From: Alphaproteobacteria bacterium
GTDB lineage: Bacteria > Pseudomonadota > Alphaproteobacteria > JAPOUT01 > G958296285
Reading direction: 5' to 3'
DNA length: 64,000 nt
Assembly (NCBI GenBank): GCA_965209065.1
Contig: OZ242373.1
Span: 1,415,384 to 1,479,383 of the forward strand
Position 1 is the first letter of the stretch, and the number at the start of each line of letters is the position of its first letter. Position numbers and translations under genes: made by a program. Under the pieces are notes generated by a model. That model did not search any database and was not told where the DNA came from. It worked only from the letters and a program-made list of their open reading frames with translations. This document shows, piece after piece, positions 9,855 through 33,800 of the stretch.

Positions 9855-9883
9855 AATATAAGGTTTCGCGGGGCTTTTGTCAA
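9855..9883 (-). promoter_or_regulatory. sigma70-like promoter of the BI-1/YccA gene
   Basis: Minus strand has a near-consensus TTGACA, a 17-nt spacer and TATATT, followed by AGGAGG and the ATG at 9824. Confidence 0.5.
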
Positions 9884-9920: not shown

Positions 9921-9957
9921 TAAAAAGAGCTCCCCCTCTCTAAAAAGAGAGGGGGAG
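9921..9957 (-). terminator. rho-independent terminator after giant gene copy 1
   Basis: Perfect 11-bp inverted repeat ctccccctctc-taaaaa-gagagggggag at 9930-9957. On the minus strand it is followed by CTCTTTTTAT. It lies about 40 nt after the stop codon at 9994. Confidence 0.6.
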
Positions 9958-15900: not shown

Positions 15901-18900
15901 TAGATATTTAACGCGAGGCTTCACTTCCGCATTTCCCGCAGTGGTGAAAGTAGCAGGAGCGGTCGAGCCTGCGGTGAAAGGCGTATCATTCTGTTGTAAT
16001 CTGATAGAGCTTGCCCTCAAGGTGGGAGTAGGCGTAAAGACAATGTCGCCTGTTCCGCCGCTTGCGCCCGCAACAAGCCTGATGATGCCCGTGCCAGCAT
16101 TAAACATACCGGCGATGGTGAGGTCTCCAGTCGCATTGATGGTTAGGTCTGCGTCAATTTGACTGCCTTCTTCGGCTGAATCCAAGCTAACGGCAGCACC
16201 CGAAATGGTGGCTTTGCCGATGAAGGTGATAGCACCTGCGGTGGTGAGCGTTAAGTCGCTTGCGGTTATAACCTCTGCGTCATCAACCGTTGCGGTTGAG
16301 CGCGCGGAAATTACACTGCCCGTTTTACTTGCCTCTGTAGTTACACCGCCTGCGGTTGATGCCGGAATCTCTCTGCCGAAAATGATGTTCGTGGCGGTAA
16401 GCGTGGTGGCTTCCTTGCTAAAGACAATACCATTCGCGCTAGTCGTTGAGGCGGTGAAGCCTCCCGTGAGGTGTATCGCTGTGGCGGCAATGACAATATC
16501 ACCAGTGGCGATAAGCGTGAGGTTTTGGTCGCCACGGATAGCGGCATCGCCTGATGTTGTGCCGTCCGCACTTGCGGTGATGCTGATATCTTTCGCGGTA
16601 ATTGAAACGGCGGCGGTTGAAACCAGCAGGGTGCGCGCGTTAATCGTCAAGTCGCCAGTGCCTAAATTGGCGGAGGCGGAGACTTCAACTATTTTGCCGG
16701 CGGCTGTGATGGAGAGATTTCTATTTGCGGTAGTATCCACCATCCACGCTCTTAGGTTAATGATTGGGCCTTCGCTTGCGGTGCTGGTGAGAACGAGACT
16801 TGGGGTTGCCAGCGTCAGCTCTGCGGGGAAGTTGGCACCACTTGACCATACGACTGCGGTTGCGGCGGTAATGCTTGTATCACCATCAGTGCTTGTGCCA
16901 GACGCATCGGTTAGGTTGAAGGTAGGCGCAGTGATGACCGCACCCGAGAGGTCTGCACGGCGAGCGGTGATGGCTAAAGTTAAGTCATCGCCCAAAGTGA
17001 GCGCGCCCTTCAAGATGAGATTTGCGGTAAGCGTAATCGCTAGGTTTCCACTGAAAGCAGTAGCAGGCGCGGTATCTGCGCCAGCGCCGATGCCGATGCT
17101 CGCCGCTTCTAGGGTAAGGCTGGCGGCGGTAATCGCCGTTATGCCTGCGGGGAAAATGATTTGTCCTGTCGTGATGAGCCTCACAGATTCCTCGCCGAAG
17201 CTGAGGATACCAGTGGCGACGTCAAAGGTGAAAGGTCTAAATGCCATTTGGTCTGAATCACCAGCGATAAGGTCAGCGATAATAATGTTTTCATCGTCCG
17301 CATCGTATGTGAGGGCGGCGAATTCAAACCAGTCATGCTCCGTTTGCGGGAGTCCGCCCGTGCGCTCCGCATTGGGCAGTGCGTTTTCAAAAATAGTGAA
17401 AGTGACGCCTGTCGGTTCATCTTCGGGGAAAAGAGCGTTTTGCGTTAATAGAATGGAGCGCGCGGTTAGCGTCAAGCCGTCATTAAGAGTGATAGAGCTT
17501 TGGTTCTCATTGTCGCCATTGTTTCCAGCGCTAAAGTTCATTTCGCCGCCGTCTGCCTCATTACCCACATCAAATAGACCTGAGAGGTTGATATTACCAT
17601 CGGCAGTTAGGGTAAAGTTTTGCTTGCTTGTTGCACCCGCGATAGTGGAGGTAAGCGTTATCGTGCCTGCCGTGATACTCGTTGCTTTACTTGCATCAAG
17701 GACGATTGCGTTCGCCGCATTAAGCGTGAGGTCAGCACCCGCAGCTCTAATGTCGCCACCGATTGTTATATTGTGCGCTCTAACAACAGAGGCTTTGGAG
17801 AAGATAACTTGTCCGCTTGCCGACAGGTTCAAACTACCTTCGCCGCCATGTCTCAAGTCTATATTATCCGCGCTAATGGTGATATTGCCTGCGGTCGCAC
17901 TTAAGGTGAGCCCTTCACTGCTACTCGTATTGGTAATCGCGGAACTCGCGCCAGTTCCATCGCCTTTGGCGGTGATGTTGATTGCCCCTGCGGTGAGCGT
18001 GATATTACTAGTTTTCACAGAAAAGTCGGTGGTAACAAGTGTCAAAATGCCGCCGCCTAAATTGATATTGATTCCTGTCGTAATCGCAGTGGAACTTCCT
18101 GCGCTAGTGATACTCAAACTTCTCCTGCCTGATGTCGGCACCATCCAGCCAGCGATATCAATAGTCTCTTCGCTTGAGGTGATTGCCAAGCTATCGGTTG
18201 TGAGGCTTGATAAAATAGTCGCATCAACTGAGGCGTAAGAAAGCACGAGGTCGGTCGTGCCGAGGTTAAAGCTTCCTGAGAGGTCAAGCGCGCCCGATGC
18301 CGTAATGGAAATCGATGCGCCGGCGGCGGTGGCTGGGGTAGTGGAATAGAGAGTGATGTCCCCGCCCTCAAGGGTTGCGCCGTCAGCGAAAGTGATAGCG
18401 GAGCCTCCCATAGCCATCAAAGTCAAGTTGCCGTTGCCGAAAGCGACAAGTCCAGCAGGAACGTTAATATCGGCGGTAGAGGAAGCTATAGTTAGGTTTT
18501 TGCCTGTGCGGATTGCCCATGCGGGAATAGTGAAGTCTGTGGCTCCATTGATATTAAGGGTAAGGTCGCCGGTATTCGTTCCTACGTTAGGGCTTCGGTT
18601 CGTAACGGTGGGAGCAGTTATCGTGAGGGCTGCCGCGCCAAAGCCTGAGCCACTAAGTGAAATGCCAGTGCCAGTGCTAGTTGTTATAGAGTATGTTGTC
18701 GTAATAGACGAAGCGCCACCGCCTGTCGCCGCTAGACTCGGCTGGTCGAATTCCCCTGCTCCTGTATAGGTAATAGCAAAATTTCCTACTAGAATGCGAG
18801 AGTTACTGCTAAGTCCCGAGCTGCTTTGGTCAGTGCTTATGCTGAAGGTATTGTTATCACCTGCAAAACTAAAGGTATGAAGTCCGCTAATAGTGCCATT

Positions 18901-21900
18901 ATCATTAGCAACCCCTGCGGTCAATGAGCCGCTTAAATTGAGGGTAACTGTAGCATTGCCCGCGCTGCTTGCGAGAGTTGATGCGACACTGCTTCCCAAA
19001 GTCAAAGTGCCTGCGGTGATGGTGGCGTCTCTAGCGAAGACGATACCATTGCTGTTAGCCGTGGTGGTTCTCAAGGCTAGGTCGCCGCTTCCGATATTAA
19101 GCACGGAGGGAACATTAAGAGCAACTTCGGTGGTGGTTACCGACAAGTTCGTGATATTCGCGGTTGCCCAAGCGGGTATATTGAAAGCGGTGGCGCCTGT
19201 ATAGGTGAGCTCGAGCGTTTCTGCGGTGAGCATAACGTTGGTTAGCGTGGCGTCAAATTCGCCCGCCGACAGGGTTAGCGTGTTTGCGCCGAAGTCATAA
19301 GCAAGCCCTGCGGTATCTGTAAAGGTTATTTTACCCGTTGCGGTCATTGATACATTGGCGGGGTTCGCAACGCTACCTGATAGCGTTATGGTTGCGGCTG
19401 TGATGGCAACATCGGCGCTTCCAAAGTTCAAAGTGGCGGCAGTTAATGATAACGCGCCTGTTCCAATGTTAAGTGCCGCAGGTATGGTGATGGTAACGCC
19501 AGCCACTGAGCCTGAATCAATAGTTAAGTTTTTACCAGCAACAATAGCCCACGTTTCAATAAGGAAAGTGCCATTCTCTTCTGCCAAGTTAATCGTAAGT
19601 GCGCCTCTAGTAACGGTATCAACCGCGCTCACTTCATTGGCGGTGAGGGTTAAATCTCCTCCGCCGATAGTAAAGCCGCTAGGCAGAGAAATCTCATCAG
19701 CCGTAATGCTTAAATCAACACCGGCAATCGCCGCCCAAGTTGGAGGCGTGAATGCGCCTGTGCCAGTATAAGCTAAGGAAATGTTAGAAACATTGGTAAT
19801 TGTCGGTGAGGGCGTGGCGGCAAATATAGCAGCACTAAGCGTTATGCTGGCGTTGGTGGAGGTAGTGCTATTAGCAAAATCATAAGCACCACTTAGAGAT
19901 AAAGTGCCGCTGGCAGTAAAGCTCAAAGGAGGCAACAGGGCATTGTTTGATGCGGCTGTTGTGGTGGCGAAGGTAATATCGCCTGCGGTGATTTGTGTAA
20001 AGCCTCCGCCAAAGTTAATTTTGTTCGTGTCTATATTTAAGTTTCCTGTTCCAAGAGAAACACCAGCTAATATATTCACCGTTGCTTCGCTTGCGGTTAT
20101 CGTGAGGTTTTTATCGCTTACAGCCATCCAATCAACGATATCAAGAGCGGTTGTGCCACTATTGGTAATTTCAAGCTCGCCGAAAGTGATGTTGGTGCTG
20201 TTGCTATAGGTGAGCGTGCTTCCCGCGCCCGATGTGCCGTAATTAAGCTCGAGCGTTTGCGTTCCGACATTAATCGGACCATTAAGCGTCAAGTTGCCTG
20301 TAGCCGTTATCGTTAAGTCTGCGCCCGCCGCAATGGTTGCCGCACTTGCTCCCGTTATGGAAACGGTTGAGCCGGTGATTGTAGTTTCTGTCAGCGCATT
20401 GGCGAAAGTTAAAGAGCCTGCGCCTATGGTTAAAGCCTTACCGCTATCGCCAAAAGCGCCGCTGAGCGTAATTGCGCCGTTTGCGGTGAGCTTGATACTA
20501 GCTCCCCACCCGCTAATGCTACCGGCGGAAATGGTTATACTGCCTGTTGTTTTTATTTCAGTAAGGGTGCTAGGGAAAGTAATTTGCCCCTCTGTTTGAA
20601 GCTCTAGAGGCTGACCGCCTAAATCTAAAACGCCATTAACAACGCTGAACTTACCTGATATTAACGTGGCTAAATTGATTGATGCCTGACCTGTGCTCAT
20701 AATAGGCACAGGAATGGAACAGCTGGTGTTTTCGACCGTTGAACAGGTAGCCCAAGTGCTAACCTGATATCCGTCCGCCGCATCAGCGCCGGTATATTTC
20801 ACCGCAGGCTTAACATTAAAGCTTGCGGGCGACACGCCATTAAAAGCTTCCTTGTTTGCTGATTGCGTTAGGCTAATGGTTTTTCCATTGATGGTGGGGG
20901 CGGGGCTTCCTGTAAACAAAATCTGACCGCCCACAGCAGTGATAGCTAAATCACCTTGAGTAGAGCCTGCCAAGCCGATGTTAAATGTGCCTTGAAGGGT
21001 TATGTCGCCCGCTGTCGTTGTTAAAGTGAGGTCTTGATTGCTCTGCGTTGCTCCCGCCGTAGAAGTGAGCGAGATGGATGTAGCTGTAATCGCAGTGGAG
21101 GCATCTAAGGCAAAACTAATTCCTCCAGTAGCACTTATCACTAAGGAGCCAGTTCCAAAATTTCTTGTTCCGCTAGGAAAAGCGATAGATGAATCGTCTG
21201 TCGTTATAGTCAAACTTCTATCGAAAGCGGCGCCGCCGCTAGCAGGAATCAGCCATTCGTTAGCTTCCGCCGTAAGGTCAAATGAGCCTGTGCTCAAAGT
21301 AAGGTTAACGCCACCCGCAGTTAAGGCGCGGTTGGTGCTGGCGTAAGTTAAACTTGCGGTCGTCAAGGTGAGCGTGCCAGTGCCGAGATTAATAGCACCT
21401 GATAAAGTCACGGCATCAGCATCTAGCGTTACGTTGCGCGCCGCGCTTGGAGCGTCGGGTGTTCCTTTTGAAGTCAGCGAGATAGAAGAGCCGCCGTCAA
21501 TTTTGGTGTCGCCGCTATAATTGATGGTGGAGCTTCCTGTGGTCGTAAGAGTGATAGTGCCGCCCGTTTGGATAAGCCCTGATAGCGTGAGAGCGCCGTC
21601 CGGAGTTATCTGCACATTATGGGTATTGTTTGGTGTTCCATCAATAGCCGATGAAAGCGTGATTTCATCGGCGGTGATGGTAGTGGCGCTTGAGAAAATA
21701 ATCGCATCAGCCGCGTTGATTGTTAAATCAGATATTCCCGAATTAAATAGGCCACCAAATAATCCTCCTACGCTCACCGTTCCGCCAAGCGTGATGTCAT
21801 TTACTTTGATGATTACGTCGTTTGCGAATCGAATCTCACCATTTGCCGCCGATAGGGTTAGATTGTTTTTATTGGCGTCATCATCACCCGTGCGTTTAAG

Positions 21901-24900
21901 GTCTATGCGAGTAGCGTCTATTACCAAATTGCTAGTTCTCGCGATGAAGGTTATATCATAATCCCCAGTGCTAATGATACCAGGAACACTCCCATCGGTA
22001 GAGTCTCCCCTAATGGAAAGGGTATGAGCGGAGAGCGTCACATCAGCCGCGCCAAAGATAATTTGATTTCTTGCGGTGAGGGTCAAAGTTCCCGTGCCGT
22101 TCGTTGTGATAGATGTGGGAATGGTGATATTGCCGCTCAAGTGCGTTGTGGTGAGGGTCAAGTTTCTATTGGCATTGCTACCAAGCATCCATGCCGCATA
22201 GGTTAAGGTGCCTGCGTTCGTTTTGGTTACGGTCAGGTCATCTGTGGTAAGAGCCGTAGGCGCGGTGAAAGTGCCGCCGAAAGAAAGCGCCACATCTCCC
22301 TCGCCGAAGTTATAACTGCCTACGAGGCTCAAGTTGCCTGTGCTGGTAATACTAATTGCGCCATTGGCGGCAGAGGTATCGGCGGCGTTGGATTGTAGTT
22401 CAACAACGCCTGCGTTAATTGTGGCGGCGCCTTGGAAGTCCAATTTCCCGCCGGTAGATTTCAATGCTAGTTTTCCTGTGCCTGCGCTGCGGTCATAGCC
22501 TGCTAGTATAATAATATCGCCGGTAATTTCAATATCGGTGGTGCCTGCCGCGTCAGGCATCCAGTCTGCGACCGCGAGATTTCCCGAAATCCCGCGTATC
22601 GTTAAAGTGTTTACGCCAAAGCTCACAATGTCGTCAGCGGCAAGAGTCCTTGTGGTTATCGCAAACGAGCCTGCCCTAAAACTACCGATAAGAGTGGTTG
22701 TGCCTGTCGTCGCGATTATGGTAAGCGCGTTGCTGTTAGATGCGGGAGCGGCGGCGGCGTTGATGCTTACGTTCGCTGCGGTCAAAGTGGCATTGCCGTC
22801 AGGCACGATGATAGTTCCTGTGCTGGTAGTGGTTAGGCTCAAGCTCCCGCCGCCGATGTTAATGCTCGCGAGGGTAATGTTGCCTGTAGCTGTAACCGTC
22901 AGGTTTTGCCCTGATTGCTCCATCCAGCTCGCCAGCGTGAGCGCGCCGCTTGCGTTAATGATAAGCGTGCCTCGGCTTGTGAAGCTTGGGGGAGTGTCGC
23001 TCGCCAGCGTTGCGGCGTTTAGCGTTAGGGTGTTGCCGTTGAGGTTAAAGTTGCCGGTCAGGTCTAGCTCGCCAGTCGCGGTGAGGGTAACTGCGCCGGC
23101 GGCGGCGCCTGATGCATCGCCTGTGGTAAGCGTAAGGTCTGCGGCGGAGATGGTGGGGGTAGCTTCGGTAAAGCTAATGCGGTTCGCGATTATCTCTAAA
23201 TTTTTCCCTGAGAAGCTGATGTCGGGGACGCTAACAGCTATACCTGCGGCGTTGATAGTAAGAGCGGTGGTTGCGCCGGTCATCCAGCTTGCGATGGTGA
23301 GTGCTTCGCTTGCGCTGTTACCGGCGGTAATGTTAAGTGTGGCGACAGTAAGGTTGGGGGTGGTATAGGCTAAGGAGCCGCCGCCATCGCCATATTGAAT
23401 ATCGAGGGTGGCGACATTAATCGCTCCAGCTAAAGTTACGCCGGCGGAAGCGTCAATCGTAAGTTTTGTTCCCGGCGTGGTTGCGCTCGCGCTGGTTATG
23501 GTGATGCCCGAGCCGATAATTGTTGTTGTGCCTGTGAAGGTCAAATTGCCGGCTGAATTGATTTCTAAGTTTCTAGCCGCAATACCGAAGCTATTCGCTA
23601 GGGTGATGTTGCCCGAAGTTGTTGTGAGCTTGATAGTGCCACTAGCCGCGAAGCCACTTACGCTGGTTGCGGTGATAGAGATAGAGCCTCTCGTTTTTAT
23701 TTCCAAAAGGTCGTTAGGGAAAGTGATTGTGCCTGTTGGGGTGAGTGTAAAATTAGAATCGCCTAAATCCAAAATGCCATTCACAATTTCAAATTTTCCG
23801 TCAATCTCATTCATAATGTCGGCGGCGGAAATGTTCGTGCCAGCTATATCAATATGGTCGGGCTGGAGGCAATTCGCCACGCTGGGGGTGCATGCGCCCC
23901 AAGATGGAATGCTGTATGTTGCGCCTGCCGCTAAATCTGTGCGTATGAGAATTGGCAGGTATACGCTCGCTGGGTCGGCACGATTAGGACTGCCGACTAC
24001 ACCACCATACCCTCTCCTAAAGGTCGTTGAGCCTATATCACTAGCAAAAGCGGTGGCTGTTTGCGTTAGTTCAATGGTAGCATTGTTATCTGTAATAATA
24101 ATTGTTGGCTCGCTCGTCCAAATAAAGTTGCTGGCGGTTAGTTTGATACTAGCTGCCGTGTCCTTATTAGTCACCGAGCTCGAAAATCCGGTCGGTCCAG
24201 CGCCTATTCGTGCCATCTCAAGATGACCCTGAATTTCAATTGTGCCTGTCGTAGTGAGGATAAAATCTCGTTTAATGTCGCTGCTTGTAAGAAAGTAACC
24301 CCTATCATTGACACCATCTTCATCGGCTATGAAGTTAAGCACTACTGCCCCAGCATTAAGTTCTGTTATGTTTATTTCTTGAATAATGGGGGTATCATTA
24401 GCGCCGACAGCCATATGGTCGATGAGTGTTAGGTTGGGGATATTAAGTGTTAGCGTGCCCCCATCACCTAAATTATAAACACCCCTTATAGAAAATTGAG
24501 TGAATCTAGCCCCGGTTTTTTGGTTTATTGTGAGGTTTTGATTACCATCACCACTAATGGCTGTAAAGGCAGTCGTTGTTATATCAACATCTGTAGCATT
24601 AAGCTGAATGCTCTCTGCCACTGTAATTACAATATCATCATTAGCTCCGCCAGCACCATCATCAGCGCCATCAAATATAATACGCGGCGCGGTGATTTCT
24701 AAAGTGTTTGCTATGACACTCCCAGTAATTAAGACGGGTCTCGTTTCTGATGTTATCTTAATTTGCTTAGCCAGTAGCGCCCAGCTTCTAATAACAAGCG
24801 GGTCTGAGGAGTTATGTGTGTTTTCTATATTAACGACATAGTTTTCAAAAGCGTCCGCCTGATTAGCCCCAGTGCCAGTGGTCGGATAGATTATACCGCC

Positions 24901-27687
24901 CATACCCACATTCAGAATTAAATTATTTTGAAGAGTAGCAGTGCTTACTTTTACAAGATTTTTGAAGGTGATGGAGTTTGTGCCATATATTTTAACAGAC
25001 GATAATACCCCTGCATTATTACCAAAGCCTTCAAGGTAAGGGGCGTCAAGTGTCAGGTTTGTTGCTCTAATAGCAGCTTGGGAAATGATGCCACTAAAAC
25101 TACTTAATACCTTCATTGATAACTGACCATTTGTTTTTAAGATTAAATCAAATGCTGGGTGGTTGCCGTCATCATCTTGCGCGGCAAACACGTTCGCTAT
25201 TCTTAAATCTATCTCTGAACTATCTATATCAGCCGCTACCGTGCCGCCAGTTATTTCAATAGTGAGCGTAGCACCCGCAGATAATCCACTTATTCCACCT
25301 GTGCTAAATACATCTTCATCTCCGTTCTTCCCCGCCGACGGATTAGACGTAGAGTGGGTGTTGGCGGCGGTTGCTATGGTGATAGAGCCAGTGGTTGTTA
25401 TTCTCGTTAGGGTTGAGGGAACAATAATTTTGCCGCCGGTTATAAGCGTTAAGTCAAATGTTCCTAAATCTAAAACGCCATTCTCAATCTCAAAGCCACC
25501 TAACACGTCCGTTAGCGTTATACTGCCCACTTGCTCTACGTTAATATCTGCCTTCGGGACGGGGGGAGCTTGGCAAAATGAATCGCCAGCAAGGCAAGAT
25601 GCCCACCTTGGACGCGTATAATTCTCAGTGGCATTTGTTTGGCTAATAATAGGATTTGTGTCGTCGGACCTAATAGGCAGTTCACTGTCAGGGTCAAACG
25701 CTTTCGCCTGCTTTAAGGTAATGGTGCGCGCGCTTATAGTTCTTTTTGTTGGGGCGTTATTAGCTGGGTCAGTTAGGTGGGGAATTGTGCTAAAATTAAT
25801 ACCGCCGGTGCCTGCGGTGATGACTAAATCACCCCCGCCTACATCTGGAGCGTATATAAAGATAGCGGTATTGATGTTTACCGCTCCATCAGCGGCGGCG
25901 GCGATAATCGTGAGGTTTTTCAATGTTGAGAAGGGTTGCCTTACAGCAGTAAGAGTGACTGAAGCGCCGGTAAGTGTGGTTGCCCTAGAACTAGAAAGAG
26001 TTAGCTGACCCGCTGAATTGATGGTTAAATCCGAACCGCTAACACCAAAATTACCCGATAAGCTGATATTGCCAATAGGATTGTCGAAGTCATTATTGCT
26101 GGTGGTTGTGGTGAGCGTAAACGCAGTGCCTGCTGTTGTTGGTGTCCATGAAAAAGTGCCACCTATGCTGATGTTGATATTTCCTGTTGTTGTTCTTATT
26201 CCGGTAAGTGCGGGAGGGAAAACAACATTGCCGGCTGTGCTAAGCGTGAAATTAAATGTGGTTACATCAAACTCACCCGAAGTGAAATCAAACTTTTCTG
26301 TTATTGCGTCCATAATTTCTTGCGCGGTGATGCCATCGTTGTCTGGGTCTGTTATGTTAATCGCGCCCGCAGTCTTAATCGGCGTTGTATCGGTTGTGGT
26401 TAGCGTGGCTGCTTCGGTTGGCGTAGTGCCAAGGTTTGTGCCATCATAAACATAAGCCTTTAGGGAAGTGGGTCGTGTGCCAAACGCTCCTACCTGCGAT
26501 AAAGCAATGGTATCTGCATATAAAGTTACACCCGAGCCAAAAGTAATTACGCCCCCTGTTGCCGTTATCGTTAAAGTAGGCGAGAAAGTGCTTGTGCTTA
26601 CCAACTCTATATTCTCGTTTATAGTTATTGTTGGCGCCGTTAAAGTAAGATTGCCACGAGCTAACGCATTGCCCGTCGTGCCACGATCTATTGTCGCACC
26701 AACAGTTATATTCTCAGTCGCCGCCAGCGAAAGTGTCGTCCCCGCATTAGCCTCAAGGTAAACGCGAATCGCACCTCCCAGCAAATAAAGAGTCTCTCCC
26801 GCATTATCATCTTCCGCTATATTACCTATATCTGTCGCATCAACCATATTGGCTCTTAAGCCATTATTATCTGTAATAACGATATTGGTAGGGTCAAGCA
26901 AAAGCTCCCCTGTTTTCACATTCAATAAATCAAACGAGGCGAGACTCTTCTTACCTGAAATCTCAACGAAACCGCTTCCCGCATTTATGTTGCCTTGAAA
27001 GTTTGTGCTAACATCAGACCAAATAATAACGCGCGGTGATGTTATTAACGCGCCCGACTCCACAATTGTTTTTTGTGAGTTGGTAATATCTCCCTTGCCT
27101 TGAAAATCACCGCCAACAAGAACCTCTTCATTTGCCGTTAAACTTGCGCTTGAACCTATCCTTACCTCATTCGCGCCCTCTACGATTATTCTATCTGCCG
27201 AAACCGCGCCGCCAACATTAACCACTTCGCCCTTGCTTAAACTTTGTAAATGAACTTCGCCTGAAGGCGCATTGATAACACCTTGCGCCGAAACCGAACC
27301 CGAACTCGCTGAGGCTAACAAGCCCCCAACATTCACCACCGAACCCGCGCCAAACTCTACGCCAGCAGGATTCTCCAAAACCACACGACCATTCGCGCTT
27401 AACGTGCCGTCTATCTGTGTGCCAACGCCATTACGAACGCCTATCACTATAGACGAACGCGAACTCGGCTGATGGATTCTAACTTCCTCTCCCGCCGAGA
27501 TGTCAAAGCTATTCCAGCTCGTTCGCAAGCTGTCGGTATATTGTCTTATGTTATATGCGTCACTTAAATCGCCCGAGCCCGAGAGAATCTCTCCCCCTCT
27601 TGGCGCGGCAGACGCACTCGCTACACAAAAAAATGCTAGAAAAGCAACGCTTAACCAGCCTTTGACGGCTATTTCTTTTATCGGCAT
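9994..27687 (-). CDS. giant TPS-domain exoprotein, copy 1 (TpsA / filamentous-haemagglutinin-like, 5,897 aa)
   Basis: Single uninterrupted 17,694-nt ORF. AGGAGG lies 8 nt upstream of the ATG. It has a Sec signal peptide (MPIKEIAVKGWLSVAFLAFFCVASASA). A ~230-aa TPS-like domain follows (…WNSFDISAGEEVRIHQP…DGTLSANGRVVLENPAGVEFGAGSVVNVGGL…, compare the NPNGI region of FhaB/ShlA). The remainder is T/A/G/S/I/L/N-rich imperfect repeats with recurrent xWMx(5-8)RNLTLT modules, three W-x2-C-x6-7-C modules and a distinct acidic C-terminal domain ending CSTATACR. Confidence 0.85.
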   Translation of the reverse strand: MPIKEIAVKGWLSVAFLAFFCVASASAAPRGGEILSGSGDLSDAYNIRQYTDSLRTSWNSFDISAGEEVRIHQPSSRSSIVIGVRNGVGTQIDGTLSANGRVVLENPAGVEFGAGSVVNVGGLLASASSGSVSAQGVINAPSGEVHLQSLSKGEVVNVGGAVSADRIIVEGANEVRIGSSASLTANEEVLVGGDFQGKGDITNSQKTIVESGALITSPRVIIWSDVSTNFQGNINAGSGFVEISGKKSLASFDLLNVKTGELLLDPTNIVITDNNGLRANMVDATDIGNIAEDDNAGETLYLLGGAIRVYLEANAGTTLSLAATENITVGATIDRGTTGNALARGNLTLTAPTITINENIELVSTSTFSPTLTITATGGVITFGSGVTLYADTIALSQVGAFGTRPTSLKAYVYDGTNLGTTPTEAATLTTTDTTPIKTAGAINITDPDNDGITAQEIMDAITEKFDFTSGEFDVTTFNFTLSTAGNVVFPPALTGIRTTTGNINISIGGTFSWTPTTAGTAFTLTTTTSNNDFDNPIGNISLSGNFGVSGSDLTINSAGQLTLSSSRATTLTGASVTLTAVRQPFSTLKNLTIIAAAADGAVNINTAIFIYAPDVGGGDLVITAGTGGINFSTIPHLTDPANNAPTKRTISARTITLKQAKAFDPDSELPIRSDDTNPIISQTNATENYTRPRWASCLAGDSFCQAPPVPKADINVEQVGSITLTDVLGGFEIENGVLDLGTFDLTLITGGKIIVPSTLTRITTTGSITIATAANTHSTSNPSAGKNGDEDVFSTGGISGLSAGATLTIEITGGTVAADIDSSEIDLRIANVFAAQDDDGNHPAFDLILKTNGQLSMKVLSSFSGIISQAAIRATNLTLDAPYLEGFGNNAGVLSSVKIYGTNSITFKNLVKVSTATLQNNLILNVGMGGIIYPTTGTGANQADAFENYVVNIENTHNSSDPLVIRSWALLAKQIKITSETRPVLITGSVIANTLEITAPRIIFDGADDGAGGANDDIVITVAESIQLNATDVDITTTAFTAISGDGNQNLTINQKTGARFTQFSIRGVYNLGDGGTLTLNIPNLTLIDHMAVGANDTPIIQEINITELNAGAVVLNFIADEDGVNDRGYFLTSSDIKRDFILTTTGTIEIQGHLEMARIGAGPTGFSSSVTNKDTAASIKLTASNFIWTSEPTIIITDNNATIELTQTATAFASDIGSTTFRRGYGGVVGSPNRADPASVYLPILIRTDLAAGATYSIPSWGACTPSVANCLQPDHIDIAGTNISAADIMNEIDGKFEIVNGILDLGDSNFTLTPTGTITFPNDLLEIKTRGSISITATSVSGFAASGTIKLTTTSGNITLANSFGIAARNLEINSAGNLTFTGTTTIIGSGITITSASATTPGTKLTIDASAGVTLAGAINVATLDIQYGDGGGSLAYTTPNLTVATLNITAGNSASEALTIASWMTGATTALTINAAGIAVSVPDISFSGKNLEIIANRISFTEATPTISAADLTLTTGDASGAAAGAVTLTATGELDLTGNFNLNGNTLTLNAATLASDTPPSFTSRGTLIINASGALTLASWMEQSGQNLTVTATGNITLASINIGGGSLSLTTTSTGTIIVPDGNATLTAANVSINAAAAPASNSNALTIIATTGTTTLIGSFRAGSFAITTRTLAADDIVSFGVNTLTIRGISGNLAVADWMPDAAGTTDIEITGDIIILAGYDRSAGTGKLALKSTGGKLDFQGAATINAGVVELQSNAADTSAANGAISITSTGNLSLVGSYNFGEGDVALSFGGTFTAPTALTTDDLTVTKTNAGTLTYAAWMLGSNANRNLTLTTTHLSGNITIPTSITTNGTGTLTLTARNQIIFGAADVTLSAHTLSIRGDSTDGSVPGIISTGDYDITFIARTSNLVIDATRIDLKRTGDDDANKNNLTLSAANGEIRFANDVIIKVNDITLGGTVSVGGLFGGLFNSGISDLTINAADAIIFSSATTITADEITLSSAIDGTPNNTHNVQITPDGALTLSGLIQTGGTITLTTTGSSTINYSGDTKIDGGSSISLTSKGTPDAPSAARNVTLDADAVTLSGAINLGTGTLTLTTASLTYASTNRALTAGGVNLTLSTGSFDLTAEANEWLIPASGGAAFDRSLTITTDDSSIAFPSGTRNFGTGSLVISATGGISFALDASTAITATSISLTSTAGATQSNQDLTLTTTAGDITLQGTFNIGLAGSTQGDLAITAVGGQILFTGSPAPTINGKTISLTQSANKEAFNGVSPASFNVKPAVKYTGADAADGYQVSTWATCSTVENTSCSIPVPIMSTGQASINLATLISGKFSVVNGVLDLGGQPLELQTEGQITFPSTLTEIKTTGSITISAGSISGWGASIKLTANGAITLSGAFGDSGKALTIGAGSLTFANALTETTITGSTVSITGASAATIAAGADLTITATGNLTLNGPINVGTQTLELNYGTSGAGSTLTYSNSTNITFGELEITNSGTTALDIVDWMAVSDKNLTITASEATVNILAGVSLGTGNLNIDTNKINFGGGFTQITAGDITFATTTAASNNALLPPLSFTASGTLSLSGAYDFANSTTSTNASITLSAAIFAATPSPTITNVSNISLAYTGTGAFTPPTWAAIAGVDLSITADEISLPSGFTIGGGDLTLTANEVSAVDTVTRGALTINLAEENGTFLIETWAIVAGKNLTIDSGSVAGVTITIPAALNIGTGALSLTAATLNFGSADVAITAATITLSGSVANPANVSMTATGKITFTDTAGLAYDFGANTLTLSAGEFDATLTNVMLTAETLELTYTGATAFNIPAWATANITNLSVTTTEVALNVPSVLNIGSGDLALRTTTANSNGIVFARDATITAGTLTLGSSVASTLASSAGNATVTLNLSGSLTAGVANDNGTISGLHTFSFAGDNNTFSISTDQSSSGLSSNSRILVGNFAITYTGAGEFDQPSLAATGGGASSITTTYSITTSTGTGISLSGSGFGAAALTITAPTVTNRSPNVGTNTGDLTLNINGATDFTIPAWAIRTGKNLTIASSTADINVPAGLVAFGNGNLTLMAMGGSAITFADGATLEGGDITLYSTTPATAAGASISITASGALDLSGSFNLGTTDLVLSYASVDATILSSLTTDSLAITSSEETIDIAGWMVPTSGRRSLSITSAGSSTAITTGININLGGGILTLVTTDFSVKTSNITLTAGAINITAKGDGTGASSAITNTSSSEGLTLSATAGNITISADNIDLRHGGEGSLNLSASGQVIFSKASVVRAHNITIGGDIRAAGADLTLNAANAIVLDASKATSITAGTITLTSTIAGATSKQNFTLTADGNINLSGLFDVGNEADGGEMNFSAGNNGDNENQSSITLNDGLTLTARSILLTQNALFPEDEPTGVTFTIFENALPNAERTGGLPQTEHDWFEFAALTYDADDENIIIADLIAGDSDQMAFRPFTFDVATGILSFGEESVRLITTGQIIFPAGITAITAASLTLEAASIGIGAGADTAPATAFSGNLAITLTANLILKGALTLGDDLTLAITARRADLSGAVITAPTFNLTDASGTSTDGDTSITAATAVVWSSGANFPAELTLATPSLVLTSTASEGPIINLRAWMVDTTANRNLSITAAGKIVEVSASANLGTGDLTINARTLLVSTAAVSITAKDISITASADGTTSGDAAIRGDQNLTLIATGDIVIAATAIHLTGGFTASTTSANGIVFSKEATTLTATNIIFGREIPASTAGGVTTEASKTGSVISARSTATVDDAEVITASDLTLTTAGAITFIGKATISGAAVSLDSAEEGSQIDADLTINATGDLTIAGMFNAGTGIIRLVAGASGGTGDIVFTPTPTLRASSIRLQQNDTPFTAGSTAPATFTTAGNAEVKPRVKYLGAGEQQVTDNDGDWFVLDTLEFAPDNGSDNVDIAALLADTNGDFSDFSINADGLLDFGTEIVTITTTGKIIFPAGIREIRAAGLVLTAASIGIGAGADDGDATAFSGDLTLTIQGRLTLNGILTMGADTSLTANVLGSTSLVGVFTAPTFNLTTNRLTIGSADVVTSISATGTNATGAVVLTTTNAVTFTAHTDGTLPTIATPNLTWSKGDSVFGETSGFTLTGGGNLTLAYTGEAAEAVVLRDWMVATDRNLSLTATGEITLATADLGAGTLTLSGLFITTGDADVVLTASAIRLTTTEETNAAISGDQDLTLIATGDITIAATAINLSGDFTASAGGNITFTKATTLASANITFGRNVPAAGDVAASVIGSTIRAQSTADGETTEHVLVFITTAAITFIGETTITGAGIGLVSLTEGAASNADLTITASNGVVLSGLFNTGTGDISVTSGADNAIRFADGTNIVETVLKGGAITLTSGTATAEGIADEGGTPAIGSGHVTVIATGAVLLGGAFDTGAGNITIIAGTTTAGEEMPINFSTTQATTISGADISLTATGTATSGTATASNQALTITASGELTLDGDYDLGTGALTLNYDSISAPTGDITAGGLAIISTSDITIAEWMVEENRNLSVTATGAGITLATADLGTGTLTLSGVVITMGAAPATLTASTIRLTATAEGTEAGDAAIRGGQALTLIATGDITLTATAINLTADFTASTNGNITFSKAAVLTAANITFGRSVTVAGIGDLPATTTITGSTIRAQATADETTTQHNLTLTTAGAITLIGATTISGADVSLTSTTAGAASNAAFTIRATGAAILDGLFNTGTGAISVTSGADNAIGFGIATTMLTGGAITLTSGTAESATTPDAGAGDVTITATGAVLLGGVLQTTGNITITAGTTTAGAEMPIHFSTTQATTISGAVVSLTATGTATSGVATASNQDLRITASGALTLAGSYNAGTGDVVLIYASLGTAPTALVTDDLTITSAAAITIAEWMVAIGRDLFLTATNEGITLADVDLGTGTLTLSGSFLATGAADVTLMASAITITTSADTTGAAAAIRNTDNQNLTLIATAGNISIGADTIDLQHGNTNTGTGDLSLSASGEIIFTKAADVKANDIAIGGVVRAQTITPATDDAEEIVAASHNLTLTANGALNFAADKPTAISGADITLASAADSTPTASGQNLTIVAATGAVALSGNIDLGRTVAAAGTTPATTGGTLTITSGGDIAFSGTGTLTAEVIAITATSGQATFAGTPTIATTTFNWSQGGAFVDASPATLTVANLNLIRTADDGITFAAWMAATDRNLSITIVPTTEGSASAVISIGSNVTLGAGNLSLSATRLSISGASIIMAGDVNIVLSGTGSEATSALAGTASLGITASGSITIHAQNINFASVDLTLTAGDDEDIMFTHADGTSINAQNITIGGVVRSQSTATVNEAAVITQENLSLIVVGQINFSTEKATSIFGAVITLTSPTVGTTSTQNLTVTATGNLALSGGFDVGVGRLDLIAGDERGDTGVITFADPTALTASFIKLSQDGALFPTDKPTEVTFNINVVDEDGAITSTAEGAPRISYLGAEIQGRLTWATQFALYSGDGADKNIDLMDAFEAGNPFADEDNLEDNIVDFTDEDDKDFIVNADEGGNLILPDMPITIKANRIVISADKVGTGAGGNGVTRKIVLEATEIIIIDAEIAASDNIEINAPIVIFSKTKPVTLTGMNIMIDTDEMVEMPDDVANNQNVNLIAMNDIELNNNLNIGFGTLVLRSMSDTGSVRVSQRNVRIVANRVVYDAGIQTTGGNNIVIETMNDIILTDSSVMTAGNVILRAGGSIILPDGDVAIQAGEDIILEQRYGRRSNGNLTLTAGGDVNLIGTLYRGAGNIAITAGGAVVLTDAEALIAAQVSITQADVFSTDAPRTLFIGQNGVANAPALVYTGTAAHPIILWGASLTCSTATACR
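11970..16750 (-). repeat. intragenic tandem array of ~1.13-1.58 kb (~380-aa) repeat units in giant gene copy 1; counterpart in copy 2 at about 29,790-34,600
   Basis: TGGATG (Trp-Met) signature codons recur at 11973, 12891, 14025, 15165 and 16743. Spacings are 918, 1134, 1140 and 1578 nt. The units are alignable (…xWMVxxxRNLSxTATGxITLAxxDLGTGTLTLSG…AAIRGDQxLTLIATGDIxIAATAIxL…IRAQSTA…). Confidence 0.6.
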
Positions 27688-27699
27688 GGGAGAACCCTC

Positions 27700-27760
27700 C
27701 TGTTATAGTATAATCAGAGTATTATTCTAACACGCTTATTTTCTCCGCTTCAAGCAAAAA
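27700..27760 (-). promoter_or_regulatory. putative promoter and 5' UTR of giant gene copy 1 (duplicated with the unit)
   Basis: Minus strand has TTGAAG (27748-27753), an 18-nt spacer and TAGAAT (27724-27729), then AGGAGG (27696-27701) and the ATG at 27687. A near-identical sequence lies upstream of copy 2. Confidence 0.4.
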
Positions 27761-27805
27761 ATAAGGCGCGATTGGCTTATCCCCCAATAGAAGAGCGTTC
27801 CCGTT

Positions 27806-30800
27806 TTAGCGGCAAGCAGTAGCAGTGCTACAAGTCAGGCTTGCGCCCCAAAGAATGATGGGGTGCGCGGCGGTGCCTGTATAAACAAGCGCGGGTGCAT
27901 TAGCAACCCCATTTTGCCCTATGAATAGAGTGCGCGGCGCATCGGTGCTGAAAACATCTGCTTGAGTAATGCTCACTTGCGCAGCAATTAGAGCCTCAGC
28001 ATCCGTTAGCACGACCGCGCCACCTGCGGTGATAGCTATATTACCAGCGCCTCTATAGAGCGTGCCGATGAGATTAACATCACCGCCCGCCGTTAGAGTT
28101 AGGTTGCCATTAGAGCGCCTACCATATCTTTGCTCGAGAATGATATCTTCACCTGCTTGAATAACAACATCACCATCAGGAAGAACAATGCTACCGCCAG
28201 CTCTTAGGATAACATTACCAGCCGTCATAACAGAGCTGTCTGTAAGGATAATATCGTTCATTGTTTCAATAACAATATTGTTACCACCTGTGGTTTGGAT
28301 GCCAGCGTCATACACAACTCTATTAGCAACAATTCTGACATTGCGTTGGCTGACCCTAACACTTCCAGTGTCGCTCATTGAGCGCAAGACAAGCGTTCCA
28401 AAACCTATATTCAAGTTGTTATTTAGCTCAATGTCATTCATCGCGATTAAATTGACGTTTTGATTGTTAGCAACATCGTCAGGCATTTCAACCATCTCGT
28501 CAGTGTCTATCATAATGTTCATGCCAGTTAGAGTAACCGGTTTGGTTTTAGAGAAGATGACGATGGGGGCGTTAATTTCTATATTATCGCTTGCCGCTAT
28601 CTCAGCATCAATGATGATAATTTCCGTTGCTTCTAACACGATTTTCCGTGTCACGCCGTTGCCGCCCGCGCCCGTGCCAACCTTATCTGCCGAGATAACA
28701 ATACGATTGGCTTTAATGGTAATAGGCATATCGGGAAGAATCAAATTACCACCCTCGTCCGCATTGACGATGAAGTCTTTGTCATCTTCATCGGTGAAGT
28801 CGACTATGTTGTCCTCTAGATTATCTTCATCTGCAAACGGGTTGCCCGCTTCAAAAGCGTCCATTAGGTCTATGTTTTTATCTGCGCCGTCGCCGCTGTA
28901 AAGAGCGAATTGCGTTGCCCAAGTTAAGCGTCCTTGAATTTCAGCACCCAAGTAGCTAATTCTTGGTGCGCCCTCGGCGGTGGAAGTAATCGCGCCATCC
29001 TCATCTACTACATTGATATTGAACGTAACCTCTGTCGGCTTGTCTGTGGGGAAGAGCGCACCATCTTGCGAGAGCTTGATAAAGCTTGCGGTAAGCGCGG
29101 TGGGGTCGGCAAAAGTGATAACGCCTGTGTCGCCTCTCTCATCACCAGCGATGAGATCCAATCTGCCAACACCAACATCAAACCCGCCTGATAGAGCAAG
29201 ATTGCCGGTGGCGGTAACCGTAAGGTTTTGAGTGGAGGTTGTGCCTACTGTCGGCGAAGTGAGCGTGATAACAGCACCGAAAATGCTGGTTGCCTTCTCG
29301 GTAGCGAAGTTAATCTGCCCAGTAGTATCGCCAGCAATAAGGCTTAGGTTTTCTTGCGTGACAACTGCCGCCTCATTGACCGTTGCGGTTGATTGCGCGC
29401 GCACCACACCACCAATAGTTATATTTTGCGCGTTGATGCTCGTTCCATCAGCATGGGTGAACGTAATGTCTTCATCATCACCTGCTGTTAGGGTCAAATC
29501 AACGCTGGCGAAATTTATATTTTGCGCGTGTATGGTGATAGAACCACTAGCCGTGATACCCAAAGAAGCTGTGCCCGCCAAGGCTGACGTTGCTTCGCTC
29601 CCTGTTCCAGAGAGGACTATATTCACATCCCCTGCCATGATAATGCTGGCACCCGATATAGATAGGCGAGTGGCGCTTAAAGATAAATTGCCCGCTCCAA
29701 GAGTAACATTCGACCCAATAGAGATAACAGCTGAAGCACTGCCCTCAGTTGTCGGCACAATAGCAATAGATAAATTCCTATCCGTAGCCGCCATCCAAGC
29801 AGCAAACGTTATTCCATCATCAGCTGTTCTAGTTAAATTGAGATTAGCCACCGTAAGCGTAGCAGGGCTGGCATCAACAAAAGCACCGCCTTGCGACCAG
29901 TTAAATGTCGTGGTGGCGATAGTTGGCGTTCCAGCGAAAGTGGCTTGACCGCTTGTGGCGGTGATAGCAATCACTTCCGCCGTGAGTGTGCCCGCGCCGC
30001 TAAAGGCGATATCGCCTCCGCTCGTTATGGTTAAAATGCCACCTGTTGTTGCGGGGGTTGTTCCTGCCGCCGCAACTGTTCTACCGAGATCGATATTGCC
30101 TGATAGAGCAACCGCACCTGTGGCAGCTACTATCGTCAAGTTTTGACCGCTTGCGGTAGGCGTGCTATCGGCGGCAGAAGCCAGCGTAATATCAGCACCC
30201 GAGATAGCAGTTGGCTTGTCGGCAGCAAAGTTGAGCGCACCATTCGCCGTTAGGGTGAGGTTATGGCTCGCAGCCACTATTTCTTCTGCATCGTCAGTTG
30301 CTGGTGTGATGGTTTGCGCTCTAACAACGCCACCGATGGCAATATCGTTTGCCTTCACATCAGCGGCTTTGGTGAAGATGATTTCACCACTTGCCGATAG
30401 GCTCAAGTCGCCCGTGCCGGTGTTGGTGTTGCCGTGTTGTAAGTCTATAGTGTCTGCGCCAATGGAGATATTACCTGCGGTCGCAACTAGGGTGAGGTTT
30501 TGATTATCCGTATTGCGAATAGCGGCAGCAGCACCTGTGGTGTCCGCGCTTGTCGTGATGGTTATCGCTGAAGCCATTAGGGTAACATCAGCCGCGCCGG
30601 TTGCGAGGAAACTTCCGCTAAGCGTTAAGGTGCCCGTGCCTAGATCAACATCGGCAAGAGTAATGCCTTCATTGGTTGCTGTGAGAAAGAGGTCTCTGCC
30701 TATTGCCACCATCCACTCTGCGATGGTTATCGCGGCGGCAGAAGTGATGGTTAAGTCATCTGTTACTAACGCGGTTGGCGCTGTGCCGAGAGAAGCATAA

Positions 30801-33800
30801 ATCAAGACAACATCGCCCGTGCCAGCGTTATAACTACCCGCAAGTGTTAGCGCACCTGAAGCGGTTATCCTAAGGTCTTGGTTGCTTGCGGTTGCCACGC
30901 CGCTTGTAGCGGTGCCAGTAGCCGTGAGCGAAACAATCGCACCGCTAATGGTTGTGGCTTGCGTGGTAGAGAAGTGTATCGGCATCTCTTCACCAGCAGT
31001 TGTTGTGCCTGCGGTAATCGTAATGTTTCCAGTGGTCTGAAGCACGCCGCCGAGCAATACCGCGCCAGTAGCGGTTATCGTAACGGCGCCCTCGCCTACA
31101 TCAGGTGTGCCACCTTCCTCAGCCATGCCTTCAGCAGTAGCAGTGCCAGAAGTTAGGGTAATATCACCACCTTTAAGCACGGTTGCCTCGTCGGTGAAGC
31201 GTATTGCGTTATCAGCACCCGAAGTGACGCTAATATCGCCTGTGCCTGTATTAAACAAGCCGCCCAAAGCCACTCCGTCGCTTGCCCTTATGGTGAGGTC
31301 GGCATCGCTTGCCGCGCCTTCTGTGGCTGAAATTAGGCCGATAGCAGCACCCGTGATGGTCGTCTCACCGATGAACGTGATAGCAGCTGTGGTGATGAAC
31401 ACTAAGTTATGCTGTGTCGTTGTTTCGCCTTCTGTGGATTGAGCTCTTATCGTGCTGCCCGTAATGGTAGTCACATCAGCCACACCCTCTACCTCACTCT
31501 CTACAGTTACGCTTCTGCCGAAAGTGATATTCGCGGCGATAAGCCTGACGGCTTTGGTGAAGGTAATGTTGCCACCTGCTGAAGCGGTGAAGTCTGCGGT
31601 GAGGTTTATCTCTGTGGCAGTGATGTTGATATCGCCTGTGGCGATAAGCGTGAGGGCTTGCGCGCCGCGGATAGCGGCAGTTGCTTCCTCTGTGCCTTCT
31701 GTGCTTTCTGCGCTTGCGGTGAGCGTTATCGCCGAAGCCGTTAGCACAATAGTATCAGTGCCCGTTCCCGTTGTGATGAAGTCTCCGCTCAGCGTTAAGG
31801 TGCCTGTGCCTAAGTCAATATCGGCGAGAGTAATGTCTGCGTCTGTAGTGATAGATAGATTTCTGTTTTCTTCCACCATCCAGTCTGCGATTTCTATCGC
31901 GTTCGCCGAGATAATTGTTAAGCCGCCGCTTGCGGTGATATCACCTATCGGTGCCGAAATAGAATCGTAGTTCAAAGTCAAAGCGCCGGTGCCTAAGTCA
32001 TAATCGCCGTCTAGCGTTAGCTCGCCTGAAGCGGTTATCGTGAGTGCTTGGTTGCTTGCGGTTGCCGTGCCGCTTGTAGCGGTGCCGGTAGCCGTGAGCG
32101 TGACCGCACCACCACTAATGGATGTGGCTTGCGTGGTAGAGAAGTTTATCGGCATTTCTTGGTCTACGGTCGTTGTGCCTGCGGAAATCATAATAGTTCC
32201 ATCACCTGCATCAAACACACCGCCGAGCAATACTGCGCCGGTAGCGATTACCGTAACGTGGCCACTACCTATAGCAGGTGTGCCACCTTCATCAGCTATG
32301 CCTTCAGCAGTAGCAGTGCCAGAAGTTAGCGTAATAGCACCACCCTTGAGCACGGTTTCCACGATGTTTGTTCCGTCGGCGAAGCGTATTGCGTTATCAG
32401 CACCCGAAGTGACGCTAATATCACCTGTGCCTGTGTTAAACAAGCCGCTCAAAACCACTCCGTTGCTTGCCGTTATGGTGAGGTCGGCATTGCTTGCCGC
32501 ACCTTCTGTGAGTGAAACTAGGCCGATGCCCGCACCCGTGATGGTCGTCTCACCGATGAACGTGATAGCAGCTGTGGTGATGAACACTAAGACATGCTCA
32601 GTCGTTTCCCCGTCAGCAGTGGATTGAGCTCTTATCGTGCTGCCAATAACGCTTGCCGCTACATCGCCTGCGGCGGGAACATTTCTACCGAAAGTGATAT
32701 TCGCGGAGGCAAGCGTGGTGGCTTTGGTGAAGGTAATGTTGCCACCTGCTGATGCGGTGAAGTCTCCGCTGAGGTTTATCGCTGTGGCGGCGATGGTGAT
32801 ATCACCTGTGGCGATAAGCGTCAGGTCTTGGTCGCCACTGATAGCGGCATTTGTTTCTTCTGTAGTCGTGAGCCTTATCGCCGAAGCCGTTAGCACGACA
32901 TCTGCGTCTCCCGTTGTGATGAACAATCCGCTAAGCGTTAAAGTGCCTGCGCCCAAATCAGCAGTGGCGAGGGTGATTTCGCCTGTGGCAGTGAGGGATA
33001 GGTTTCTATCTGTAGCCACCATCCAGTCTCTTAGGACAACCGCTTCTGCTGCCTCGCCTGTGTAAGCTAGGGTGAGGTTGCCTCCACCAGTTAGGGTAAA
33101 TCCACTTGTTTCACCAAAAACGCTATCGCCCTTTGACCATGTGAGGTTGGGCGTTGCTATTGTTGGGAGTGTGCCGTCCGTGTGGGCGGTGAACGTGACG
33201 GCATTTGTTGTTGTTAAGACCACAGCACCCGTGGCATTAGTGCCCGTGGCACTGATGGAGGTCACCACATCAGCCGAGCCGATTGTCAAACGATTTGTCG
33301 TTAGGTTGAAGGTCGGTGCGGTGAAGACGCCGACCAAGCTGGTAGAGCCAAGCACATTGGCGGTAAGGCTTGTATCTGCGCCCATTGTCAAAATGCCGTT
33401 CAAGGTTAGTCTTCCTTGAATGGTTAGGGTTAGGTCGCCACTAAAGGCAGTGGCATCGCCGTCATCAGCACCGGCGCCAATGCCAATGCTCGCGGCGGTT
33501 AGGACAAGCCCTGCGGCTCTAATTTCTCTTATGCCTGCCGGGAAAATGATTTTACCAGTCGTTGTGATGGTAACAATTTCAGTGCCGAAGTCTAAAAGAC
33601 CATCTGCGTTTATGGAGAAGTCTGAGAAGTCGCCGTTAGTGTCAGCAAGAAGAGCGGCAATATCAACATTATCACTACCATTATCCGGTGCGAATTCCAG
33701 TGTGTCTAGCACAAACCAATCGCCATCATTGTCCGTGACCTGTTGTTCCCCTGCACCTAGATATTTAACGCGAGGCTTCACTTCCGCATTTCCCGCAGTG

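Follow-up and report, generated by a model that had tools for sequence, protein, structure and literature searches.

What keeps two neighboring copies of one giant gene almost identical along some stretches and deeply diverged along others? The question is raised by a 64-kb stretch of DNA (hereafter, the window) from an uncultured alphaproteobacterium, in which two giant open reading frames (ORFs) lie in tandem on the minus strand: g1 (9994..27687; 5,897 amino acids [aa]), the downstream one, and its paralog g2 (27806..45898; 6,030 aa), the upstream one. The ORF list places both where an earlier note on this DNA had put them, and their alignment reproduces the offsets given there, 18,211 nt between the starts and 17,812 nt between the stops. 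The two genes are ~87% to 91% identical overall (90.7% over ungapped columns), account for ~2% of the 1.69-Mb genome and, judging from their sequences, encode TpsA-type exoproteins (two-partner secretion [TPS], type Vb). The earlier note had described a single central cassette, kept different between the copies and flanked by blocks that gene conversion homogenizes. The pattern is more intricate than that, and we propose that it probably arose through repeated gene conversion between the copies together with allele exchange among strains, three stretches having escaped homogenization.

A patchwork of similar and diverged blocks

Block boundaries were obtained from a MAFFT alignment of g1 and g2 segmented by a two-state hidden Markov model; all blocks lie on the minus strand and are given here from the 5′ end of the genes. 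The first, which covers the signal peptide and the TPS domain (g1 27017..27687; g2 45228..45898), is 97.5% identical between the copies (17 differences in 671 nt), with a synonymous divergence (dS) of 0.107. It is thus similar, as had been claimed, but falls short of the near-identity seen in the 99.9% block further downstream. Variable block 1 follows (g1 23594..27016, aa ~225 to 1365; g2 41463..45227). It is predicted to form a β-helix and is the most diverged segment of the pair, with 56% to 72% nucleotide identity, 61% amino acid identity, 186 gap columns and an overall ratio of nonsynonymous to synonymous divergence (dN/dS) of 0.66. The description of this segment as only loosely alignable therefore holds, and the peptides quoted to illustrate it are found at aa 271 in both copies. 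Its 3′ edge (23590/41457) had been placed within ~5 nt of ours, but its 5′ edge lies ~117 nt further upstream than was thought. Likewise, g2 is 133 aa longer than g1, close to the ~130 aa that had been ascribed to this segment, but only ~110 aa of the excess falls inside the block. Repeat slippage was considered as the cause of this length variation and rejected, since Tandem Repeats Finder detected no tandem repeats.

Downstream of variable block 1, similarity returns and is lost again twice. A homogenized block (g1 22800..23593), 99.1% identical to its counterpart in g2 (40669..41462), is followed by variable block 2 (g1 20317..22799; g2 38183..40668), a segment of ~2.5 kb with 74% to 79% identity, a 201-nt island of similarity at 22077 to 22277, a dS of 0.32 and a dN/dS of 0.59. 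Next come an intermediate block (g1 18942..20316), 97% to 98% identical to g2 36799 to 38182, and a near-identical one (g1 14361..18941; g2 32218..36798), in which 5 differences are found in 4,581 nt (99.9% identity) and which includes the longest exact run shared by the two genes, 2,724 nt. Variable block 3 (g1 13265..14360; g2 31086..32217) extends over ~1.1 kb, with 76% to 78% identity, a dS of 0.31 and a dN/dS of 0.48. Finally, the conserved C-terminal ~1,090 aa (g1 9994..13264) are encoded by DNA that is 98.5% to 99.3% identical to g2 27806 to 31085; at the protein level, identity over the C-terminal 1,077 aa is 98.6%. The C-terminal ~4,500 aa, which had been regarded as near-identical throughout, thus hold two further diverged blocks (g1 20317 to 22799 and 13265 to 14360), and the single cassette gives way to at least three. 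The example offered for that near-identity is itself accurate: the antisense ORFs 16205..18238 and 34062..36095 differ at one residue.

Chance does not come near to producing g1/g2 identity as patchy as this: counted per 100 nt, mismatches have a dispersion index of 15.2, as against 0.90 in permuted alignments (maximum 1.28 in 2,000 permutations), and identical runs in the permutations never exceeded 147 nt. As expected from the earlier note, the per-window alignment resolves discrete blocks rather than uniform divergence. Third codon positions mismatch at 0.3% to 5.8% in the similar blocks and at 21% to 28% in the diverged ones, and dS likewise ranges from 0.00 to 0.11 in the former versus 0.31 to 0.47 in the latter. 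These two contrasts indicate that the patchiness reflects more than constraint at the protein level.

Probable copy-to-copy transfer and allele exchange in co-occurring strains

Further evidence comes from strain contigs of the same locus in one metagenome assembly (ERZ25069786; 1.8 to 8.8x coverage), which represent strains co-occurring in one sample. The tandem arrangement of g1 and g2 is retained in other strain contigs of this sample. In the genes flanking the locus, the median identity to the window is 99.0% to 99.5% per 300 nt and almost no interval falls below 90%, whereas in the giant genes 14% to 79% of the intervals are below 90% identity to the window copy.

Quartet site patterns, in which g1 and g2 of the window were compared with both paralog positions in other strains, distinguish sites grouping by genome, by paralog or in a crossed fashion. 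In variable block 1, 587 sites (with L002) or 689 sites (with L023) group by paralog, and each other pattern accounts for 0 to 1 site. Hence, g1-type and g2-type alleles of block 1 are orthologous across strains and had diverged before the strains separated, in line with the idea of a segment that is kept different. The similar blocks show the opposite arrangement, with by-genome, by-paralog and crossed sites in ratios of 32:1:3 (22800 to 23593), 22:5:3 (18942 to 20316) and 40:2:0 (14361 to 18941). Since the strains separated only after the duplication, such by-genome sites require copy-to-copy transfer, that is, gene conversion. Together with the contrast in third-position mismatch, they support the earlier view that gene conversion homogenized the flanks of block 1. 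Variable block 3 yields a mixed signal (14:7:18), with crossed alleles in other strains.

Allele painting extends this picture to exchange between positions. In strain contig L001, much of block 2 in the g1-position copy is of the window's g2 type, and the g1-position copy of L019 carries a g2-type allele across part of block 3. For block 1, no exchange between the g1 and g2 positions was seen in the sampled strain contigs. The cassette switching envisaged for that block was therefore not observed, but blocks 2 and 3 have been swapped. In the 4.6-kb near-identical block, other strains likewise show 98% to 100% identity between copies from different positions.

Among strains, several further allele types of the N-terminal variable region occur at the g2 position. 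One of them (L022 1 to 4099, ctg50567) lies in a gene called at 6,357 aa, an intact allele with flanks ~99% identical to the window, and ~500 aa of it (aa ~400 to 900) reach at most 40% to 58% identity to any sampled paralog. Across six alleles, nt 1 to 671 are 88% to 98% invariant, the next ~1.4 kb are 0% to 50% invariant with large indels, and conservation resumes at ~nt 3930. The g1-type block 1, for its part, is 99% to 100% identical between L001 (10900 to 14200, ctg44184) and the window (23500 to 26800), the adjoining parts of the gene being 73% to 97% identical, which suggests that this allele was recently shared or swept between strains. Over gene nt 4330 to 4630, the g1-position copy of L001 and the g2-position copy of L002 are 73.5% identical, whereas the window paralogs are 99% identical. 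If L001 and L002 represent one strain, the conversion tract at 22800 to 23593 would be specific to the lineage of the window.

Taken together, these data are best accounted for by a tandem duplication followed by concerted evolution. The duplicated unit of ~17.8 to 18.2 kb would have run from a 75-nt leader, bearing a promoter-like site and a ribosome-binding site, through the ORF to a 34-nt tail, and each unit would encode a giant TpsA-type exoprotein in which a signal peptide and a TPS domain precede ~5,600 aa of repetitive, lineage-specific fiber of the β-helix type. Conversion tracts of differing age would have left the similar blocks at their present 99.9%, 99%, 98.5% and 97.5% identity, and three stretches would have escaped homogenization as deeply diverged alleles, block 1, just after the TPS domain, most strongly so. 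Exchange among strains and between positions would then reshuffle the diverged alleles into many mosaic fiber variants on a ~99% identical background. The conversion itself presumably proceeds by RecA-type homologous recombination; the diverged blocks may persist because identity below ~80% blocks tract initiation, because selection maintains two specificities, or both. Both proteins presumably use one TpsB encoded elsewhere, and we propose that sharing this transporter keeps the TPS domain uniform.

Several observations weigh against this account. The dN/dS of block 1 is raised yet remains below 1, a value at which relaxed constraint and diversifying selection are inseparable, and the g1-type block 1, being 99% to 100% identical in two strains, is not itself fast-evolving. 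The comparison contigs are of low coverage and come from one metagenome, so that some blocks could have been created or sharpened by chimeric joins or collapse during assembly; in no second strain are both paralogs available across the same long segment, and the quartets mix two strains. Finally, no TpsB gene lies in the window, so that export by the TPS pathway is a prediction from the domain.

An unlikely alternative is that the duplication is recent and that diverged alleles were subsequently imported from other strains or lineages, with little or no conversion between the paralogs. Alleles at the g2 position that match neither g1 nor g2 (<90% identity, including the ~500-aa segment) despite flanks ~99% identical fit this scenario, and they do imply either allele import or ancient polymorphism. 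But the 587 to 689 by-paralog sites that make block 1 orthologous in other strains date the duplication before the strain split; variants common to both window copies and absent elsewhere (40:2 and 32:1) need copy-to-copy transfer; and g2-type alleles at the g1 position indicate exchange between positions.

We also regard it as decidedly unlikely that the pattern is an assembly artefact, in which identical blocks reflect consensus collapse in a mixture of strains with ~99% average nucleotide identity (ANI) and some breakpoints are strain-chimeric joins. Several strain-variant contigs of this very locus do occur in the same sample, at 1.8 to 8.8x coverage, and a single consensus assigned to both g1 and g2 would equally yield by-genome sites. 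The strain contigs also carry frame breaks of the homopolymer type, which split the giant genes into several called ORFs (L019 6442 to 6931; L020 700 to 1750; L001 13474 to 13486). The isolated breaks in conserved context are single-base differences in homopolymer length, in contigs of no more than 5.8x coverage, and are probably read errors rather than marks of pseudogenes; on the same grounds, we rejected the fragmented g1-position ORFs as pseudogenes or silent donors. Against the artefact, the diverged blocks (56% to 79% identity) are in frame within intact ORFs of 5,897 and 6,030 aa and cannot be errors, and the similar blocks are graded (97.5%, 98.5%, 99.1% and 99.9%) rather than all-or-none. 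Moreover, the tandem layout and the paralog-specific block 1 recur in independent contigs, as does the 98% to 100% likeness of 4.6-kb block copies at different positions.

Very little probability attaches to selection acting alone, that is, to a uniformly ancient divergence that, without recombination, strong purifying selection would hide in the similar blocks and relaxed or diversifying selection would accentuate elsewhere. The boundary of block 1 (nt 671, aa 224) does coincide with the end of the TPS domain match (aa 227), and dN/dS is 0.11 in the TPS domain versus 0.48 to 0.66 in the diverged blocks, highest in block 1. Yet synonymous and third-position divergence differ 4- to 100-fold among blocks, and neither the 2,724-nt exact run nor the by-genome site patterns are explained. 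That a protein of the surface type has a hypervariable region and mosaic alleles might suggest programmed variation (silent cassettes of the pilE/pilS or vlsE type, a diversity-generating retroelement or a site-specific invertase), but this is hardly credible, since both copies are full-length ORFs with their own leader and ribosome-binding site, tandem repeats are lacking, no silent or partial cassette, reverse transcriptase, diversity-generating retroelement or recombinase was found among the housekeeping neighbors, either in the window or at the syntenic loci of other strains, and the other TpsA paralogs match block 1 at no more than 58% identity, over the TPS domain alone, and so are not donors.

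Encoded proteins, duplication unit and neighborhood

Assignment of g1 and g2 to the TpsA type draws on an N-terminal Sec-type signal peptide recognized by inspection (MPIKEIAVKGWLSVAFLAFFCVASASA, then AP), on matches to PF05860 at aa 47 to 227 (44.8 bits, cut-off 33.5; E = 2e-11) and TIGR01901 adhes_NPXG (49.6 bits, cut-off 29.1; E = 2.8e-13), and on the sequence LENPAGV at aa 104 to 110, with an NPAG variant of the NPNG-type motif at aa 106. When all 5,897 aa were compared with Pfam and NCBIfam by hmmscan, the TPS domain was the sole match: the remaining ~5,600 aa were unmatched, including by the Fil_haemagg and Fil_haemagg_2 repeat families. This passenger is predicted to be a right-handed β-helix and is rich in T, A, G, I, S and L. 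BLASTP of the protein in chunks revealed degenerate internal repeats throughout; self-BLASTP of the whole protein returned the identity match alone.

The passenger appears confined to its lineage. Only 8 of 1.84 billion representative proteins match block 1 at E ≤ 1e-3, the strong matches being its own orthologs, and a homolog search with aa 1401 to 2900 retrieved in-lineage paralogs alone. A TPS-domain scan of genome contigs from GTDB representatives found only distant TPS proteins, at 28% to 46% identity, indicating that there are no species-level relatives among them. Within the genome itself, at least 6 TpsA paralogs are encoded. Four shorter ones (P0004, P0005, P0007 and P0011; 1,350 to 2,299 aa) have TPS domains 43% to 58% identical to those of g1 and g2, and the last ~450 to 1,400 aa of the shorter paralogs are held in common with g1 and g2 at 26% to 39% amino acid identity. 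This points to a C-terminal module, ending in WGASLTCSTATACR, that is conserved among the TpsA paralogs. Over the C-terminal ~1,090 aa of g1, amino acid identity to the other TpsA paralogs of the genome is 34% to 39%.

The limits of the duplicated unit can be read from the ends of the genes, where g1/g2 homology reaches 75 nt upstream of each ATG and 34 nt past each stop. As delineated by pairwise alignments and a promoter scan, the 118-nt intergenic region that contains the duplication junction (27688..27805, minus strand) is made up of a copy of the 3′ tail (34 nt), ~8 nt and a copy of the 5′ leader (75 nt); no ORF was found in this gap after g2. The g1 leader holds a promoter-like TTGAAG-18-TAGAAT (27753 to 27724) and an AGGAGG ribosome-binding site. 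In alignments, the g2 leader (45899..45974, minus strand) is homologous to it, its promoter-like motif scoring 8/12, under the threshold of the scanner. A terminator-like hairpin with a 12-bp stem and a T tract follows g1 (9922..9957, minus strand); none was found after g2. Between this hairpin and the next gene, which belongs to the Bax1-I family, lies a strong σ70-like promoter match, TTGACA-17-TATATT (11/12; 9855 to 9883, minus strand).

Genes flanking the pair encode, upstream, an ABC ATPase, an FtsX permease, a GDSL lipase, an aldo-keto reductase and sdhCDAB, and, downstream, the Bax1-I family protein (a YccA homolog), ABC-2 transporter genes and aconitase. A megablast search of plasmids with the upstream flank gave no match. 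SdhA and aconitase of the window lie on a contig of 1,687,333 bp, and the closest named relatives of this SdhA are alphaproteobacterial (Hyphomicrobiales, Parvibaculales and Parvularculales), at 75% to 77% identity, which marks the source as an uncultured alphaproteobacterium with a small genome. Neither the window nor the syntenic loci of other strains revealed a TpsB gene (ShlB/POTRA, Omp85), and the TpsA paralog P0006 (1,933 aa; L024, ctg50567 394675 to 420476) also has no TpsB beside it, which suggests that one shared transporter is encoded elsewhere. P0006 stands alone among housekeeping genes, namely an amidohydrolase gene and nadA/nadB/nadC. Directly upstream of g2 (46005 to 49928), a gene for an 849-aa FtsX-family permease, the ABC ATPase gene and a divergent GDSL lipase gene form an arrangement that is kept in all strain contigs and that resembles tesA-ybbA-ybbP of E. 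coli; this set is probably unrelated to the fiber genes.

Besides 16205 to 18238 and 34062 to 36095, ~20 other long plus-strand ORFs, of up to 677 aa, lie inside g1 and g2. The sense codons of the two genes are RNY-like (purine, any base, pyrimidine), with 77% A+G at position 1 and 36% C at position 2, a composition that renders one antisense frame poor in stops (12.5 per 1,000 codons versus 43 to 113 in the other frames). The long antisense ORFs are accordingly regarded as by-products of composition and give no ground for assuming genes.

Comparison with known surface-protein pairs

The closest analog of the pair is hmw1A/hmw2A of Haemophilus influenzae. The first 1,259 bp of these genes, the 5′ part for the secretion domain, are identical, after which they diverge, with ~80% identity overall (PMC2424069, PMC10127715), and their binding domains map to the most dissimilar region, close to the N terminus, which is polymorphic among strains (PMC2424069). 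Here too, a paralogous pair of the TPS type begins with a similar segment (671 nt at 97.5%) that gives way to maximal, strain-polymorphic dissimilarity. By this analogy, it is plausible that block 1 sets binding or antigenic specificity. Unlike the HMW proteins, which are ~120 to 160 kDa in size and are encoded at separate loci, each with its own hmwB (TpsB) and hmwC (glycosyltransferase), g1 and g2 are in tandem, are ~4-fold longer, lack a neighboring gene for a TpsB or a glycosyltransferase, carry two further diverged blocks and show no sequence similarity to HMW beyond the TPS fold.

LspA1 and LspA2 of H. ducreyi, of 456 and 542 kDa, are 86% identical and are both secreted by a single TpsB, LspB (PMC4030455). 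They resemble the g1 and g2 products in size class, in overall identity and, presumably, in sharing a transporter, but their genes are not in tandem, their anti-phagocytic function is known and the passenger of g1 and g2 is unrelated. Intragenomic gene conversion among the adhesin paralogs babA, babB and babC of Helicobacter pylori is described as generating mosaic alleles and strain diversity (PMC4271554). The likeness lies in paralogous adhesin-type genes from which inter-copy conversion produces mosaic or chimeric alleles; g1 and g2 differ in protein family, secretion route and tandem layout. The bab genes encode Hop outer membrane proteins from dispersed loci, by another secretion route, and their switching was demonstrated experimentally during infection.

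The analogy to filamentous hemagglutinin (FHA) and CdiA, drawn in the earlier note, is weaker. Unlike Bordetella FhaB, FhaS and FhaL, the g1 and g2 proteins have no Pfam FHA repeats, and the features that define CdiA are absent: neither protein contains a VENN or pretoxin motif or a polymorphic C-terminal toxin, the C termini being 99% to 100% identical, and no immunity gene accompanies them, g2 being followed by the 118-nt intergenic region and g1 by the syntenic Bax1-I/YccA homolog. No toxin/immunity pair was found in the window, and a CdiA/CdiI reading was rejected given the lack of VENN and of any Pfam match past the TPS domain. The receptor-binding domain of CdiA is located mid-protein.

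A first literature search on gene conversion in TPS paralogs returned nothing specific. The locus represents a known kind of surface-protein evolution, with no new mechanism, of which it is an unusually large tandem case. Its value is that it shows, cleanly and in nature, how islands of divergence can stand within a gene pair under concerted evolution, and does so for the largest class of bacterial surface proteins; the case is strengthened by its population context, flanks being ~99% identical and fiber alleles 20% to 40% different. A practical warning follows, in that such loci fragment metagenome assemblies into strain-variant contigs. For this uncultured alphaproteobacterial lineage, the locus provides a well-resolved hot spot of diversity, and the hypervariable zone that starts at the end of the secretion domain is a first candidate specificity determinant. 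More tentatively, and with considerable doubt on our part, the two fiber genes may constitute a cassette-free system of surface diversification, in which three variable modules are reassorted by conversion and by exchange among strains at ~99% ANI. If so, a streamlined 1.69-Mb genome would maintain a population-level library of fiber specificities, built on variable modules whose passenger sequence has no relatives outside the lineage, and selection for it might come from hosts, phages or grazers.

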